A stretch of 4,814 nucleotides of DNA from a virus (taxonomy: Duplodnaviria; Heunggongvirae; Uroviricota; Caudoviricetes). The notes beneath the pieces are model-generated. The model was given only the letters and a program-made list of their open reading frames with translations. It was not told the origin of the DNA and did no database searches. The position numbers and the translations under genes are program-made. Location: IMG/VR virus record IMGVR_UViG_2778261560_000010; one strand, given 5' to 3'. Within the stretch, counting starts at the first letter, position 1. Each line of letters opens with the position of its first letter. Below, piece after piece: positions 1 through 4,814 of this stretch.

Positions 1-561
1 ATGCTGATTGGCTATATACGCGTATCAACAAATGACCAGAACACAGGTTTACAAAGAAATGCGCTGGAATGTGCAGGATGTGAGCTGATTTTTGAAGATA
101 AAATGAGCGGAAAAACAACGCAGCGGCCGGGACTGAAGCGGGCACTGAAGAAACTAAAACCCGGTGACACGCTGATGGTCTGGAAACTGGACAGGCTGGG
201 GCGCAGTATGCGCCACCTTGTTGCGCTGACAGATGAATTACAGCAACAGGGGATAAATTTTCGTAGTCTTACTGACAACATTGATACGTCAACCCCCATG
301 GGGCGCTTCTTTTTTCACATAATGGGTGCGCTGGCAGAAATGGAGCGTGAATTGATTGTCGAACGGACACGGGCTGGTCTTGCAGCTGCCCGTGAAAGGG
401 GACGAACCGGCGGCAGACCCCGCCGTCTCACGCAGGAACAATACGAGCAGGTCGGGCGTTTACTGGCCGGGGGTGTCAGCCGAAGACAGGTGGCACTTAT
501 TTTTGATATCGGCCTTTCAACCCTTTATCGTTATTATCCTGCGAGCGTTTCGGAAAAATAA
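1..561 (+). CDS. gin: Serine DNA invertase of the Gin/Cin/Pin/Hin family (N-terminal resolvase catalytic domain, C-terminal helix-turn-helix)
   Basis: 186-aa ORF beginning MLIGYIRVSTNDQ, with the conserved catalytic serine at residue 9 (codon 25-27) in the YxRVST(N/D)xQ motif. LDRLGRS and GRFFFH(I/V)MGALAEMERELI blocks and a C-terminal HTH segment (RRQVALIFDIGLSTLYR) closely resemble my recollection of Mu Gin and Salmonella Hin. TAA stop at 559-561. The gin symbol is chosen because com/mom lie downstream, as in Mu. Confidence 0.9.
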   Translation: MLIGYIRVSTNDQNTGLQRNALECAGCELIFEDKMSGKTTQRPGLKRALKKLKPGDTLMVWKLDRLGRSMRHLVALTDELQQQGINFRSLTDNIDTSTPMGRFFFHIMGALAEMERELIVERTRAGLAAARERGRTGGRPRRLTQEQYEQVGRLLAGGVSRRQVALIFDIGLSTLYRYYPASVSEK

Positions 562-651
562 GACGCTCCCTTTGTTGGGCCTTTACTGAATTAACGCAAA
601 ATGGCGTTTATCGGTCTGTGGATATGATAATTCTGTTTATTCAGGAACAGG

Positions 652-2709
652 ATGAATATTATGACGTCCAAATGGGTTCAACTATCATCAATGCCCGGAA
701 ACTTTACCGTTAAAGTTTCCGGTGGTACAGCGGCATTTCTTGAGGCTCCCTTTCCTCCGGCTGAAACGAAAGGAGGAATGACATTTGCTGACTGTCTCAT
801 CAGTTTTAATACACGGGATTGCCTGTGGGTAAGGCCAGTATCCGGTGATCCGAACGTGGAAATTACCGGAGCGGGTATTGGTGCTGTCATTCCGTTAAGT
901 GCTGATGTTGCCGGTACTACTGAACCGTCAGACTGGGATAATGCTGAAACACATACCCGTCCGGCAGGAAATGAAACGGCTTCCAGCTCCCCTTCCTGGT
1001 ATTACGTGATTGTTATAGCCGGTCAGTCCAATGCTTCATCTTATGGTGAAGGGTTGCCCCTGCCGGATTCTTATGATCGTCCTGATCCACGTATTATGCA
1101 GCTGGCACGCAGGAATACACAAACCCCCGGAGGTATTCCCTGCAAATACAATGAAATCATTCCAGCAGATCACTGCCTTCATGATGTTCAGAATATGAGT
1201 CTGCTGAACCATCCAAAAGCAGACCTGAAAAAAGGGCAGTATGGTTGTGTGGGTCAGGGACTTCATATTGCGAAAAAAGTATTACCGGTGATTCCTGCTG
1301 ATGCCGGGATTTTACTGGTTCCCTGTGCCCGTGGCGGCTCTGCTTTTACAACCGGCGCAGTTGGCTCATTCGATCCGGCAAGTGGTGCAGCCGAGGCGTC
1401 ACTACGCTGGGGAGTGGATACCCCACTGTATCAGGATCTTGTCAGTCGAACGAAAGCGGCACTTGAGGCGAATCCAAAGAATGTGCTGTTATCTGTCGTA
1501 TGGATTCAGGGGGAAGGAGACCTTAAAGCGACCCCGGCCCAGCATGGTGCCCAGTTTACTGCGATGGTGAAAAAATTCCGTGCGGATCTTGGTGCTTTCT
1601 CCGGTCAGTGTATTGGTGGTTCATCAGACAGTGTGCCGTGGTTATGTGGTGACACAACCTATGACTGGAAAGAGAAGAACCCGGCGGCATATGAAACCAT
1701 TTATAGCGGATATAAAAACCGGGCTTCCGAGAACATTCACTTTGTTCCACTGATGCACGATGAGTTCGGTAATAAAACCGCGACCAACCTGCCGGAGCAC
1801 GACCCGGATATCGCTTCTGCCGGGTATTATGGTGCGGAATCACGGGGAGATGGCAACTGGACAACAGCATCCAGGGCAACCCATTTTAGCTCCTGGGCGC
1901 GCCGTTTTCTGGTCTCAGATCGTTTTGCATCAGCAATTCTTAAATATGCAGGTCTGACCTCTGCATTTATTGCCGGTGTGGCCCCTGATGGTGAAGCTCT
2001 GCCTCAGCCCGCGCCGGGTGGAAAACCGGAAGCGCCGACAGGTAGTCAGCCAGGAAGCAGTGAGTCCCCCCAGCCGACATCCCCGTCACTCCGTACGCTG
2101 CTTTCACTTAAAGCATCAGCAGGAGAAGCCCCGGCTCAGGGATGGAAAATTACAGATGGTACAATCCAGCTGACGGACGAAGGTAAAGCGCTGACCGTAT
2201 CCAAACAAAGCGGAAAAACCTGGTCACTTACCCATGCGACCAGTGCTGCCGGAGAACTGTTGCAGCATGGTGGTCAGTTGACCTGTAAATTCCGTCTGTC
2301 AGGTGAAGTAAAAGAAGGCCAGTTTGCTCTGGGTATTTACCTCCACACCGATACGGTCCCGGAAGGTGTAACCATGAGTGGTACAGGCACACCGTTCCTG
2401 ATGGCGTATTATCTCCAGACAACAGGCGGCCAGTTAAATCTGATGCACCATAAAACAGGGGGGAATACGAAACTGGGATCATTTGGAGCCTACAATAACC
2501 AGTGGCATACACTTGTCCTGAAGTTTACTGCGGGAAGTGCCCAGGTAACGCCTGTGCTGGATGGCACTCCGGGCCAGGCATTCCAGATGGTGAAAGATGC
2601 ACTTTCCCCTGCCAAAGATACGCTGACACTGACAGATGTCACCAAAGGGGCAACTTATGGCGTGTCTTTTGAGAGCGTTGTCCTTGAGGTTAATACCCCT
2701 GCGGCATAA
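652..2709 (+). CDS. Multidomain carbohydrate esterase: N-terminal ~115-aa domain, central SGNH/sialate-O-acetylesterase-like domain, Pro-rich linker, C-terminal lectin/LamG-like beta-sandwich domain; NanS-p-like prophage cargo protein
   Basis: Long 685-aa ORF with an AGGA Shine-Dalgarno at 643-646, 5 nt before the ATG at 652 (alternative in-frame ATG at 661). SGNH block I VIVIAGQSNASSYGEG, putative nucleophile Ser126 at codon 1027-1029. Further SGNH-like blocks PCARGGSAF and VVWIQGEGD. Low-complexity Pro/Ser linker PQPAPGGKPEAPTGSQPGSSESPQPTSPS around 1990-2090. The C-terminal ~200 aa is rich in beta-strand-type residues (NQWHTLVLKF). Assignment is motif-based only. Confidence 0.75.
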   Translation: MNIMTSKWVQLSSMPGNFTVKVSGGTAAFLEAPFPPAETKGGMTFADCLISFNTRDCLWVRPVSGDPNVEITGAGIGAVIPLSADVAGTTEPSDWDNAETHTRPAGNETASSSPSWYYVIVIAGQSNASSYGEGLPLPDSYDRPDPRIMQLARRNTQTPGGIPCKYNEIIPADHCLHDVQNMSLLNHPKADLKKGQYGCVGQGLHIAKKVLPVIPADAGILLVPCARGGSAFTTGAVGSFDPASGAAEASLRWGVDTPLYQDLVSRTKAALEANPKNVLLSVVWIQGEGDLKATPAQHGAQFTAMVKKFRADLGAFSGQCIGGSSDSVPWLCGDTTYDWKEKNPAAYETIYSGYKNRASENIHFVPLMHDEFGNKTATNLPEHDPDIASAGYYGAESRGDGNWTTASRATHFSSWARRFLVSDRFASAILKYAGLTSAFIAGVAPDGEALPQPAPGGKPEAPTGSQPGSSESPQPTSPSLRTLLSLKASAGEAPAQGWKITDGTIQLTDEGKALTVSKQSGKTWSLTHATSAAGELLQHGGQLTCKFRLSGEVKEGQFALGIYLHTDTVPEGVTMSGTGTPFLMAYYLQTTGGQLNLMHHKTGGNTKLGSFGAYNNQWHTLVLKFTAGSAQVTPVLDGTPGQAFQMVKDALSPAKDTLTLTDVTKGATYGVSFESVVLEVNTPAA

Positions 2710-2766: not shown

Positions 2767-2946
2767 ATGACATATATAAACGTCTGCCTGCTGTATTTCT
2801 GCACGGTGGTTTGTTGTCTGTTGCTTGTCAGCGGTGGTTATAAAATTATTCGCAATTATTTTCGAAATAAAATTGATGCAGCTGCCGAGGAAAAGATAAA
2901 AAGCGGTGCTGTAATGCCGCAGCCGAAAGACTCCGGTCAGATTTAA
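2767..2946 (+). CDS. Small hydrophobic (single-pass membrane?) protein, 59 aa, unknown function; absent from the supplied ORF track
   Basis: ATG at 2767 preceded by GTGAGG (2756-2761) with a 5-nt spacer; TAA at 2944-2946. My translation: MTYINVCLLYFCTVVCCLLLVSGGYKIIRNYFRNKIDAAAEEKIKSGAVMPQPKDSGQI, i.e. an N-terminal hydrophobic Cys-rich helix followed by a charged tail. Sits 57 nt after the esterase stop and 35 nt before the next ORF, on the same strand. Confidence 0.4.
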   Translation: MTYINVCLLYFCTVVCCLLLVSGGYKIIRNYFRNKIDAAAEEKIKSGAVMPQPKDSGQI

Positions 2947-2981: not shown

Positions 2982-3227
2982 ATGCCAGAGATTAAAGGCA
3001 CGGTTACTGAAGAGCTTGTCAAACAGGCACTTTATTCTGAAGAAGTGAACCGCGTGCTGAAGGCGCAGGTTCGCAAGGATTTTGAGGCACAAATCGACGC
3101 ATATGTTGATGAAGTGCTGGCCCGAATGGTTGGTCGTTCTCCGGCTGAAAACAGCACGGAAAATGAGCCTCAACCCGTAGAGCAACCAGAGCCGGTTCAG
3201 CCCGGAACTGACGGTACTATGATGTAA
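2982..3227 (+). CDS. Hypothetical small acidic protein, 81 aa (helical N-terminal half, Pro/Glu-rich tail)
   Basis: Strong RBS AAGGAAAGGAGA (GGAG at 2971-2974) 7 nt before the ATG at 2982. Protein-like composition. Followed by a GC-rich hairpin at 3237-3256. The antisense ORF 2943..3314 looks like low-complexity junk by comparison. Confidence 0.55.
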   Translation: MPEIKGTVTEELVKQALYSEEVNRVLKAQVRKDFEAQIDAYVDEVLARMVGRSPAENSTENEPQPVEQPEPVQPGTDGTMM

Positions 3228-3236
3228 CAATACCGA

Positions 3237-3267
3237 CCGGCAGGTTTCCCTGCCGGGTGAATTTGTT
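3237..3267. terminator. Candidate bidirectional intrinsic terminator between convergent small ORFs
   Basis: Perfect 8-bp GC-rich inverted repeat CCGGCAGG (3237-3244), loop TTTC, CCTGCCGG (3249-3256), followed on the + strand by GTGAATTTGTT. Lies between the stop of the + strand ORF (3227) and the stop of the minus-strand ORF (3266). The U-tract is imperfect. Confidence 0.35.
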
Positions 3268-3436
3268 AATGCACGTTTTGTGTATTTTCCCTCCGGGGAG
3301 AACAGGCAGGACATATCAGCATCCTGAAACAGGAAGCATTTTTTGGTTTGTATGTCTTGCCATTTTGAGATCGAGAACGGCGATAGATGAGCTGTAAGGG
3401 AGTCTTACAGGCAGGGCAAACAGGCTCTTTATCCAT
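3266..3436 (-). CDS. Putative small zinc-ribbon protein, 56 aa (two CPAC motifs), unknown function
   Basis: Minus-strand ORF; I place the start at the ATG at 3434-3436 because it has a perfect AAGGAG Shine-Dalgarno 9 nt upstream on the minus strand (revcomp of 3446-3451). The track's 64-aa version begins at an upstream ATG (3460) lacking an SD. Translation MDKEPVCPACKTPLQLIYRRSRSQNGKTYKPKNASCFRMLICPACSPRRENTQNVH contains CxxC...CxxC. Stop at 3266-3268. Confidence 0.35.
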   Translation of the reverse strand: MDKEPVCPACKTPLQLIYRRSRSQNGKTYKPKNASCFRMLICPACSPRRENTQNVH

Positions 3437-3512
3437 GATAAAGATCTCCTTTTTATGCATCTCTGCTTTACAGGAGACCGGGGAATATCATAGGATACGC
3501 CACGAGCTCAGA

Positions 3513-3672
3513 GTGAAGCATTGATGCTGTTTTTTACAGATTGACCCAGAATAGTTCGCGCTATCTGAGTCGCCATTTATGTAGTCCCGAAGTAAAGCAT
3601 TGATGCAAACTTGTCTAAATCGGCCCAGCATAGTTCCAGCTATGCTGGGTCTCCCTTTTATGTAGTATCCTG
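3513..3672. repeat. Two tandem imperfect direct repeats of ~79-81 bp (roughly 70% identical by eye)
   Basis: Unit A 3513-3591 and unit B 3592-3672 share GT(G/A)AAGCATTGATGC, a CCCAG.ATAGTTC..GCTAT core and TTTATGTAGT. Unit B carries a perfect 10-bp inverted repeat CCCAGCATAG (3624-3633), loop TTCCAG, CTATGCTGGG (3640-3649), followed by TCTCCCTTTTAT; the unit A copy is degenerate. Both units contain the small dyad GCAT-TG-ATGC. Confidence 0.55.
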
Positions 3673-3699
3673 TTGATTTGAAACATACTACATATACGC

Positions 3700-3922
3700 G
3701 CGATCCTACCTTCACTGGATAAAAAGTCAATAAAATGATCATTTTATGATCGTTTTCACCACCTAAGTCTTCGTTTTCTTTAAGTAAATAATCACCGCCC
3801 TGAATCATTGTTGATGACTTTTAAATCTATTTGTTGTATCAATTAAACAAATCGAATCGATCGTTTTTGTCGATCGATTGCATGAAAAAGGCATCAACAA
3901 CAAAGCAGGAGGTTATGCGGCC
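3700..3922 (+). promoter_or_regulatory. com-mom upstream regulatory region with clustered Dam (GATC) sites; candidate methylation-sensitive promoter region
   Basis: Five GATC sites in ~180 bp, at 3702, 3737, 3748, 3859 and 3872, against roughly ten in the 2-kb esterase gene. Two lie in direct repeats AATGATCATTTT / TATGATCGTTTT (3734-3756); two lie in a perfect 9-bp inverted repeat AATCGATCG (3855-3863), 7-nt spacer, CGATCGATT (3871-3879). Candidate weak sigma70 hexamers are ATGACT (3814-3819) / 17 bp / TATCAA (3837-3842), or alternatively a -10 like TAAATAAT (3785-3792) with a poor -35. com RBS CAGGAGG at 3906-3912. Confidence 0.5.
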
Positions 3923-4123
3923 ATGTATCGAAACATACGGTGCCGACACTGCAATAAGCTACTGGCACGGGCCAGTTTCAGTTATCTGGAAGTAAAATGT
4001 CCGCGCTGTAAAACCCTCAATCAAATCACATCTCCGAGCGCCACAGAGCACCCCACATACACAAGGAAATCCTGTCGTGGGGAACAAAAAGCAAGTTACA
4101 TCCCGTATCATCAGCACGCCTGA
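3923..4123 (+). CDS. com: Com-like zinc-finger translational activator of mom
   Basis: 66-aa ORF from the ATG at 3923, with CAGGAGG 10 nt upstream. [31 protein letters not shown] has the C-x2-C-x15-C-x2-C spacing and resembles Mu Com as I recall it (MKSIRCKNCNKLL...IRCPRCK). The track's 81-aa version starts at a TTG at 3878 inside the GATC palindrome, which I consider an artefact. Overlaps the next ORF by 47 nt. Confidence 0.8.
4051..4082 (+). promoter_or_regulatory. Candidate mRNA stem-loop sequestering the mom Shine-Dalgarno and GTG start (putative target of Com-dependent translational activation)
   Basis: CCCCAC (4051-4056) is the exact reverse complement of GTGGGG (4077-4082), which contains the mom GTG start. 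The 20-nt intervening sequence carries the SD-like AAGGAAA (4063-4069). Consistent with the known Mu mechanism in which Com binding unmasks the mom translation start. Confidence 0.4.
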
Positions 4124-4814
4124 ACTTATTCGCTATAACGACAATATCGTTGGTTATGGCTCCCGTGAGTTACGGGTTGAGACAATAAGTTGCTGGCTGG
4201 CCCGACTGGTCATCGTCAATAAACATTACAGCCACCGTTTCGTAAATAATTCATACCTTCATCTGGGCATATTTTCAGAACGGGAACTTGTTGGCGTAAT
4301 GCAATGGGGTTACGCCCTTAACCCAAACAGTGGTGCACGCGTCGTAACGGGTACGCAGAACCGAGAATATATGGAGCTGAACCGGCTATGGCTGCATGAC
4401 TGTATGCCGAGAAACTCCGAATCAAGGGCGATCAGTTACGCGCTCAAGCTAATCAGGCAGCTTTATCCGCAGGTGCAGTGGGTTCAGTCGTTTGCAGATG
4501 AGCGTTGTGGCTGTCTTGGTGTCGTGTATCAGGCAAGCAATTTTGATTATGTAGGCAGCCATGAATCAACATTCTATGAACTTGATGGCGAGTGGTATCA
4601 CGAGATTTGCAGGAATGCCATTAAACGAGGCGGACAACGAGGTGAACATCTGAGGGCTAATATCGACAGAGCCAGTGTGCATAAGTTCCAACAGTTTCGT
4701 TACATCCGGTTTCTGAACAAGAGGGCCAGAAAACGCCTCAACACAAAGCTATTCAAAGTCCAGCCTTACCCAAAACCACAAACAGTTAAAACTGGTTTGA
4801 AAGAGAGTGAATGA
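4077..4814 (+). CDS. mom: Mom-like DNA modification protein (adenine N6-acetamido/carbamoylmethyl modification enzyme of Mu-like phages)
   Basis: 245-aa [34 protein letters not shown]..., resembling Mu Mom as I recall it. Start is a GTG at 4077, the first possible start after the in-frame stop at 3993-3995, with AAGGAAA 7 nt upstream. Begins inside the 3' end of com, as in Mu. TGA stop at 4812-4814, the last bases of the window. Confidence 0.85.

Follow-up and report, generated by a model that had tools for sequence, protein, structure and literature searches.

A predicted NanS-p-family sialate O-acetylesterase with a different N-terminal domain at the right end of a Mu-like prophage of Escherichia coli

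Prophage-borne copies of nanS-p, the gene for a sialate O-acetylesterase, have in the literature searched been tied to lambdoid prophages, Shiga toxin (Stx) converting and non-Stx ones alike, and never to Mu-like ones. The NanS-p enzymes of EDL933 and O104:H4 are active esterases on 5-N-acetyl-9-O-acetylneuraminic acid (Neu5,9Ac2) and support growth (PMC8065619). One NanS-p, gp84 of phage phi24B, was recently described as a virion protein, of which the DUF1737 domain binds the capsid, where hexamers occupy the central hexons of the T=9 shell, and which is processed at linkers with SSP motifs (bioRxiv 10.64898/2026.04.10.717836). This raises the question of what is encoded by the long open reading frame (ORF) in a stretch of viral DNA of 4,814 bases (IMG/VR record IMGVR_UViG_2778261560_000010, in the following the window), which lies between a gin-type invertase gene and the genes com and mom, and what stands at the N-terminus of its product. 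An earlier note, made from the letters alone, had seen in it a NanS-p-like esterase with a lectin-like C-terminal domain carried by a Mu-like element, and this observation is confirmed here. With a probability of roughly 0.75 the ORF encodes a predicted three-domain sialate O-acetylesterase of the NanS-p family, as a Mu-type variant rather than a standard member, as judged from its sequence.

The assignment is carried foremost by the central domain. Pfam SASA matched residues 119-315 with 51.3 bits (cut-off 24.8; expectation value (E) 1.6e-13) and the stretch 108-432 finds its counterpart in NanS (YjhS) of E. coli (PDB 3PT5; E 3.6e-110), so that the SGNH/SASA hydrolase of NanS/NanS-p type proposed before is borne out. 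The motifs GQSN (124-127), GGS (228-230) and QGEGD (286-290) were found where the earlier note had placed them, together with a block-IV motif RATH (408-411). In the alignment with 3PT5, which is in register at both sites, Ser126 (within AGQSNA) corresponds to chain residue 30 and His411 (within R-x-x-H-F-S-S) to chain residue 312. The chain numbering is offset by 11 residues at both the Ser and the His position, and we take the two chain residues to be the catalytic Ser19 and His301 of NanS. Ser126, already named as the catalytic serine, would thus be the nucleophile by this alignment, and His411 would serve as the general base. Blocks I-IV have been retained by 22 of the 26 Mu-type proteins in the collection and by all 31 proteins of the DUF1737 type, and the core is 68% identical to that of a 933W-type NanS-p. 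A single-sequence AlphaFold2 model of the full protein reached a mean predicted local distance difference test (pLDDT) score of 32, and the geometry of the triad is not readable from it.

The C-terminal domain points in the same direction. Residues 481-682 match 6YP6, a solved domain deposited as 'NanS-p' (E 1.2e-42, 39% identity), and Pfam DUF6645 matched residues 537-647 with 91.2 bits (E 6e-26, cut-off 27), in agreement with the lectin-like beta-sandwich expected at this end. For the phi24B protein the aromatics Y510, Y515, Y540 and F611 were proposed to bind sugar (PMC10462455). With an offset of 422 these four residues fall on Y, Y, Y and F of the 6YP6 chain, and three of the four sites are kept in the window protein as F558, Y563 and Y587. 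The domain is about 40% identical to the phi24B/933W type and, of all homologues collected, comes nearest (58-62%) to DUF1737-bearing NanS-p proteins of about 617 amino acids. Most likely the domain holds the enzyme on glycans. It is joined to the core by a linker that is aligned to neither solved structure and has 10 Pro in the 36 residues 444-479, which is the Pro-rich linker recognised earlier. Between the N-terminal domain and the core lies another linker, with pLDDT below 50 from residue 84 (AlphaFold2), only weakly similar to the 933W-type linker that holds a SISSP motif; in the Mu-type proteins an SSSP motif stands directly N-terminal to the core.

The NanS-p-like architecture described in the earlier note therefore holds for core, linker and C-terminal domain; it fails for the N-terminal domain, which is not DUF1737. 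Residues 1-105 gave no match to this Pfam model at E<=1, where the N-terminus of a 933W-type NanS-p of phage ArgO145, used as a positive control, gave 7.7e-20, and in a BLASTP comparison with the same ArgO145 protein residues 106-682 align at 53% identity while residues 1-105 have no partner. The 120 homologues listed split into two clean classes by their N-termini: one covers 97-99% of the query, starts with M(T/S)(S/D)S(K/Q)W... and is devoid of PF08410 (DUF1737), the other covers 84% of the query, and most of its members carry PF08410 and start with M.FKHYDVVRAA... or MTSKNFALITAM.... An AlphaFold2 model based on a six-sequence alignment predicted residues 9-81 as all-beta with pLDDT 85-91 over residues 10-70, as opposed to the one helix and three strands of the published DUF1737 fold (bioRxiv 10.64898/2026.04.10.717836); fold searches with this model returned generic cupin/jelly-roll similarity only. 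A word index of 5.8 billion clustered proteins, HMMER on 1.84 billion representatives and a profile search found the domain elsewhere only in fragments of the same esterases and in one Salmonella relative, and no stand-alone or differently fused copies were seen, with the proviso that full-length members may hide in 50% clusters represented by DUF1737-type proteins. Every copy seen lies in an esterase of a Mu-like prophage, from E. coli, Salmonella or, by source names, Shigella. The N-terminal domain is under purifying selection, the proportion of nonsynonymous differences (pN) being 0.24 against 0.80 for synonymous ones (pS) in comparison with the allele of locus L007, and 0.009 against 0.071 in comparison with prophage Sp18 of strain Sakai; core and C-terminal domain, too, have a pN far below pS.

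The window is the right end of a Mu-like prophage, as had been suspected. Over its whole length it is matched at 98-99% in 37 complete E. coli genomes (megablast), mostly Shiga-toxin producers from humans and cattle, and the 20 kb upstream in the best-matching genome hold a full set of Mu-type genes for portal, head, sheath, tube, tape measure and baseplate as well as an invertible tail-fibre segment. The gin of the window is 99.5% identical to ECs_4992 of Sakai. Wherever the context of a protein of this N-terminal class was looked up, the gene lay at the right-hand end of a Mu-like prophage, with gin or the invertible tail-fibre segment upstream of it. The E. coli copies of H3/L001, Sakai Sp18, P0019, P0053 and P0092 share the arrangement gin, esterase, DUF1378, DUF826 and com, with mom or a gene for a cytosine methylase behind com. 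For P0019 the collection lists 1937 blocks, and the prophages that carry it are inserted at several places in the chromosome, in keeping with a transposable phage. One further contig (P0105) has the same upstream Mu-type genes and the cassette, ends just after DUF826 and has no invertase gene called. In a divergent Mu-like prophage of Salmonella enterica the N-terminal domain is fused to the start of an esterase downstream of gin, after which the contig ends. The two DUF1737-class contexts examined are lambdoid late regions adjoining stx and holin genes. Truncated copies beside an integrase gene (H145-H149), considered as a separate context, proved to belong to a rearranged Mu-like prophage.

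That the earlier note regarded a Mu-like context as unusual could not be upheld. In phage Mu the gap between gin and com measures only 94 bp. A query with a synthetic gin|com junction found gin abutting com in none of 232 complete genomes with gin or com of this type, and out of 5426 complete E. coli genomes 204 (about 4%) contain DNA of this N-terminal subtype, mostly Shiga-toxin-producing E. coli and isolates from cattle or humans. As the cassette was found in every Sp18-type prophage examined, esterase, DUF1378 and DUF826 are a constant feature of the Sp18-type Mu-like lineage and not sporadic cargo. The Sakai copy, ECs_4993, has been annotated as 'hypothetical protein' since the genome of 2001, and Sp18 itself was judged intact and spontaneously inducible, not inducible by mitomycin C (PMC2669165).

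Within this fixed slot the gene is a mosaic. Compared with a Mu-like phage residing in an Stx2c phage (L002), DNA identity stays at about 98% over gin and the first ~117 esterase codons (to about window position 1000). Where the core begins it falls abruptly to 60-75%, along the C-terminal domain none can be detected, and at the start of DUF826 it is back at 97%, the stretch of low or undetectable identity reaching to position 2967. This profile marks core, C-terminal domain and DUF1378 as an exchanged block behind a constant N-terminal domain. The allele of this block in the window occurs in only 46 of the 5426 genomes and is about equidistant from all other alleles (66-68% in the core), with saturated synonymous sites. 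Both types of C-terminal domain were found with both N-terminal classes, so domains have been shuffled. No recent lambdoid source of core and C-terminal domain came to light; matches to phage DNA reach about 67% at best, and those at the protein level 68% for the core and 62% for the C-terminal domain. In the Salmonella prophage identity is 29% for the N-terminal domain and 24-39% for baseplate and tail proteins, against 64% over the first 33 residues of the core. The N-terminal domain has diverged about as much as these structural proteins, the core being far more conserved, and appears to belong to the Mu-like backbone.

The coordinates of all parts are collected in Table 1, which comprises seven genic features (the two minus-strand ORFs being taken as one entry) besides the domains, catalytic codons and putative signals. 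The likely start of the esterase is ATG 661, which gives a probable product of 682 amino acids (MTSKWVQ...), is shared by all variants and has AGG(A) about 8 nt upstream; in the alignment of five upstream regions ATG 652 reads CTG in Sakai Sp18. In this product Ser126 becomes Ser123. The version with 685 amino acids is the one annotated in some genomes by the NCBI Prokaryotic Genome Annotation Pipeline (PGAP); the sequence has long been public under the pipeline names 'sialate O-acetylesterase' or 'DUF6645 domain-containing protein'. The esterase had no match to any NCBIfam model. PADLOC defence models matched neither the esterase nor DUF1378, DUF826 or the ECs_4996 homologue, and an Rfam scan of the window returned no RNA family.

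Table 1. Features of the 4,814-base window, with positions counted from its first base.
Feature	Position	Strand	Basis or remark
gin-type serine DNA invertase	1..561	+	Resolvase and HTH_7 domains; left border of the slot
Candidate activator-dependent promoter	594..631	+	CGCAAAA box, -10-like TATGAT/GATAAT, no -35
Esterase ORF	652..2709	+	uninterrupted; 685 amino acids from ATG 652 or 682 from ATG 661
N-terminal domain, residues 1-84	652..903	+	predicted small all-beta barrel in place of DUF1737
First linker, residues 85-115	904..996	+	predicted disordered; ends ...ETASSSPSW just before the core
SGNH/SASA esterase core, residues 116-435	997..1956	+	3PT5 alignment, blocks I-IV
Ser126 codon	1027-1029	+	
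His411 codon	1882-1884	+	
Pro/Ser-rich interdomain linker, residues 436-480	1957..2091	+	aligned to neither solved structure
C-terminal lectin-like jelly-roll domain (DUF6645), residues 481-685	2092..2706	+	6YP6 and Pfam matches
DUF1378 small membrane protein	2767..2946	+	Pfam PF07125, E 9e-24; travels with the esterase
DUF826 small protein	2982..3227	+	Pfam PF05696, E 3e-15; third gene of the cassette
Two ORFs (64 and 106 amino acids)	3266-3460, 3488-3808	-	together a frameshifted ECs_4996 homologue
Terminator-like hairpin	3622..3651	+	13-bp stem and T-rich tail; downstream of the cassette, upstream of com
com (translational activator of mom)	3923..4123	+	Pfam Zn_ribbon_Com, E 3e-12; right border of the slot
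mom DNA-modification gene	4077..4814	+	Pfam Mom, E 3.9e-77; last gene of the prophage

As a Mu-like prophage has no Q/pR' system, and a gene placed between gin and com could not be driven by Q antitermination from pR', expression must differ from that of the lambdoid nanS-p copies. The candidate promoter in front of the esterase might instead drive expression by means of an activator: its CGCAAAA box and -10-like element are kept in E. coli variants with differing flanks (five upstream regions aligned). An inverted repeat AACGC-N6-GCGTT lies at 593-608. The box for the Mu C protein, TTAT-N6-ATAA, which is present in the mom promoter (Pmom) of Mu, had three one-mismatch matches against 1.8 expected, none of them relevantly placed upstream of esterase or com. 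The Mu C-box TTATGCCCCAATAA is not conserved upstream of the com of the window, and a cluster of GATC sites (AATCGATCG...CGATCGATT) at 3855-3880, just upstream of com, resembles the Dam/OxyR-controlled GATC cluster of Pmom.

Regarding its function, the core would hydrolyse O-acetyl esters of sialic acids, for example Neu5,9Ac2 of mucins, as its homologues NanS and the NanS-p enzymes already assayed suggest (PMC8065619, PMC8319020). The product, N-acetylneuraminic acid (Neu5Ac), would be catabolisable by E. coli, the C-terminal domain would bind glycans, and the lysogen could gain by growth on acetylated sialic acid. Several points weigh against this reading. The esterase identity of the Mu-type copies, and likewise any role in the virion, is deduced from sequence and analogy. 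Identity to characterised or solved relatives is 66-68% in the core and about 40-60% in the C-terminal domain, where the fourth sugar-site aromatic falls into an alignment gap, so that the range of substrates could differ. The N-terminal domain, unlike DUF1737, has no stand-alone homologues among the 1.84 billion representatives, its comparison with Salmonella relies on a truncated gene of which 33 core residues are present, and the promoter and terminator calls are consensus matches only.

For the N-terminal domain, a part as lineage-specific adaptor for virion attachment or oligomerisation is suggested by analogy, because DUF1737, the domain which it replaces, anchors phi24B gp84 to the capsid. 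A further step would be to regard it as a Mu-type virion anchor, by which the esterase-plus-lectin payload that podoviral Stx phages display on T=9 capsids by means of DUF1737 was re-targeted to an unrelated, contractile-tailed transposable phage through an anchor swap alone; this analogy we offer tentatively and consider rather unlikely. If true, the display on virions of an enzyme that binds and deacetylates mucin would be portable across phage morphotypes in gut E. coli, with the anchor locked to the lineage and the payload freely traded among co-resident prophages.

An enzyme that never enters the virion, made in lysogens or freed by spontaneous lysis as first proposed for NanS-p, and with an N-terminal domain that serves only for oligomerisation or as an extra carbohydrate-binding module, is a plausible explanation, which we nevertheless place below even odds. 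It fits with the extreme right end beside mom, a typical slot for accessory genes that is empty of them in Mu, and with the lack of stand-alone homologues that would suggest a general decoration protein. It also fits with the missing signal peptide, which the earlier note had remarked upon and which is reflected in the absence of a correspondingly hydrophobic stretch from the first 50 residues (best Kyte-Doolittle mean over 12 amino acids 0.98). The conclusion formerly attached to this, that release depends on phage lysis, is doubtful as a general statement, given that the NanS-p of phi24B was found on the virion (bioRxiv 10.64898/2026.04.10.717836). Against a purely soluble enzyme speak the strict tie of the N-terminal domain to Mu-like backbones with a divergence in Salmonella like that of structural proteins, the cassette that is never missing in the lineage, which is unusual for dispensable cargo, and the fact that the replaced domain is a proven capsid anchor.

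It could also be argued that the esterase acts on O-acetylated bacterial glycans, such as O-antigen or a capsule of O-acetylated polysialic acid, instead of host mucin, either with its N-terminal domain on tail or baseplate to aid adsorption or by changing the surface of the lysogen against superinfection. This possibility was raised for NanS-p before (PMC8065619). The gene follows directly on the module of tail fibre and invertase, tailspikes and fibres typically combine an unchanging N-terminal domain with catalytic and binding modules that can be exchanged, as seen here, and PHROG 25867, annotated as 'tail protein', weakly matches residues 211-315 (E 1e-6). However, the core is 60-70% identical to enzymes that are active on Neu5,9Ac2 both free and bound to mucin, the protein lacks any trimeric beta-helix or fibre-like region, gin stands between the gene and the tail operon, the equivalent protein of phi24B sits on the capsid and not on the tail, and the supporting fold and PHROG matches are all weak, which makes a modifier of bacterial surfaces distinctly improbable. 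That the gene is a decaying, non-functional leftover of recombination with a lambdoid prophage, as frameshifted neighbours (the ECs_4996 homologue in the window, gin in H3) and insertion sequence (IS) elements in some loci might suggest, is hardly credible in view of an ORF intact over 685 codons with all catalytic blocks, the low pN in every domain and its conservation in hundreds of genomes.

The neighbours of the esterase gene add to the picture of the slot. The DUF1378 protein contains a hydrophobic window of 19 amino acids with a mean of 2.46, and relatives of both small cassette genes accompany the esterase in the Stx2a phage ArgO145 (53% identity for DUF1378, 47% for DUF826). The start of com is placed at the same site in H3 by RefSeq. 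In Sakai, ECs_4996 is intact with 154 amino acids and a CxxC...CxxC zinc-ribbon-like C-terminus and belongs to no Pfam or PADLOC family; the homologue is frameshifted in H3 as it is in the window. The gin gene of H3 (L001 20001-20491) is annotated as frameshifted, the one of the window being intact, and a 'tRNA-OTHER' is annotated on the minus strand among the Mu-type head genes of L001 (3845-3924).

Behind com, in prophages otherwise very similar, mom is replaced by a gene for a C5-cytosine DNA methylase of 350 amino acids (PF00145, E 2e-42; L002 7429-8481, L007 11792-12844, L018 8474-9526), which overlaps the end of com as mom does; the Com-controlled slot thus seems to hold a different DNA-modification enzyme in these prophages. 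Between L018 and L019, otherwise collinear, the tail-fibre assembly gene lies in opposite orientations (3331-3881), which is consistent with an active gin-invertible segment. Rearrangements were encountered as well: some esterase loci carry IS insertions, and in NZ_CP023673 (L010 8260-16000) a Mu-like prophage is split, the 5' part of the esterase with gin lying about 4 kb from the 3' part and inverted relative to it, with an integrase fragment and IS66 elements at the junction. Two genomes of about 93 kb named 'Stx-converting phage' (LC727881 and LC727895, the latter being L002) consist of a complete Mu-like phage inserted in an Stx phage, with a 4-bp repeat annotated as insertion duplication. 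Each of them has a Mu-type esterase by virtue of this insertion, and LC727881 gave a second esterase match as well.

As an enzyme the window protein is ordinary. Its significance lies in a further nanS-p copy, previously uncounted, in a common Mu-like prophage of the Sp18 type carried by about 4% of complete E. coli genomes, under a regulation which must differ from that of the lambdoid copies, these prophages not being inducible by mitomycin C (PMC2669165) and Q/pR' control being impossible. Full-text searches found no literature that links NanS-p to Mu-like phages, to ECs4993 or to this N-terminal domain, and Pascal et al. mention only 'non-Stx prophages' (PMC10462455). The domain replacement, the strict tie to Mu-like backbones and the fixed slot hence appear to be undescribed so far.

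Among known systems, the esterase tailspikes (G7C gp63.1 and the acetyl esterases of Vi phages), cited as an analogy to NanS-p (PMC8065619), likewise unite a phage SGNH-type esterase with an N-terminal module specific to the lineage and distal modules open to exchange. No sequence match to these proteins was found, the window protein is devoid of a fibre or beta-helix region, and the likeness would be one of function only. Chromosomal NanS belongs to the sialic acid regulon of the host. It has the same catalytic fold across the 320-residue core, with nucleophile and His motifs in register, but is a single-domain protein (337 residues in the solved chain 3PT5), whereas the window protein is phage-borne, lies inside a prophage and adds N- and C-terminal domains to a total of three in 685 amino acids. 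Closest in place is ECs_4993 of Sakai Sp18, which has the same slot, the same flanking genes and an N-terminal domain 97% identical, and which differs in core (67% identity) and C-terminal domain (39%), the latter being of the phi24B-like type. With the NanS-p proteins of Stx phages (933W z1466/L0105; phi24B vb_24B_21, that is gp84) the window protein shares a homologous SASA/SGNH core with its catalytic residues, a homologous lectin-like C-terminal domain, Pro/Ser-rich linkers, the lack of a signal peptide, the prophage origin and the DUF1378 and DUF826 genes that follow. It departs from them in its location, flanked by gin and com in a Mu-like prophage of myovirus type, theirs being the lambdoid late region between stx/Q and holin, and in the capsid-binding DUF1737 domain (PF08410), which is replaced by an unrelated, predicted beta-barrel. 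This clean swap for a domain of the Mu lineage provides a direct contrast for asking what the N-terminal domains of NanS-p proteins do, and bears on the virion-anchoring role newly proposed for them.

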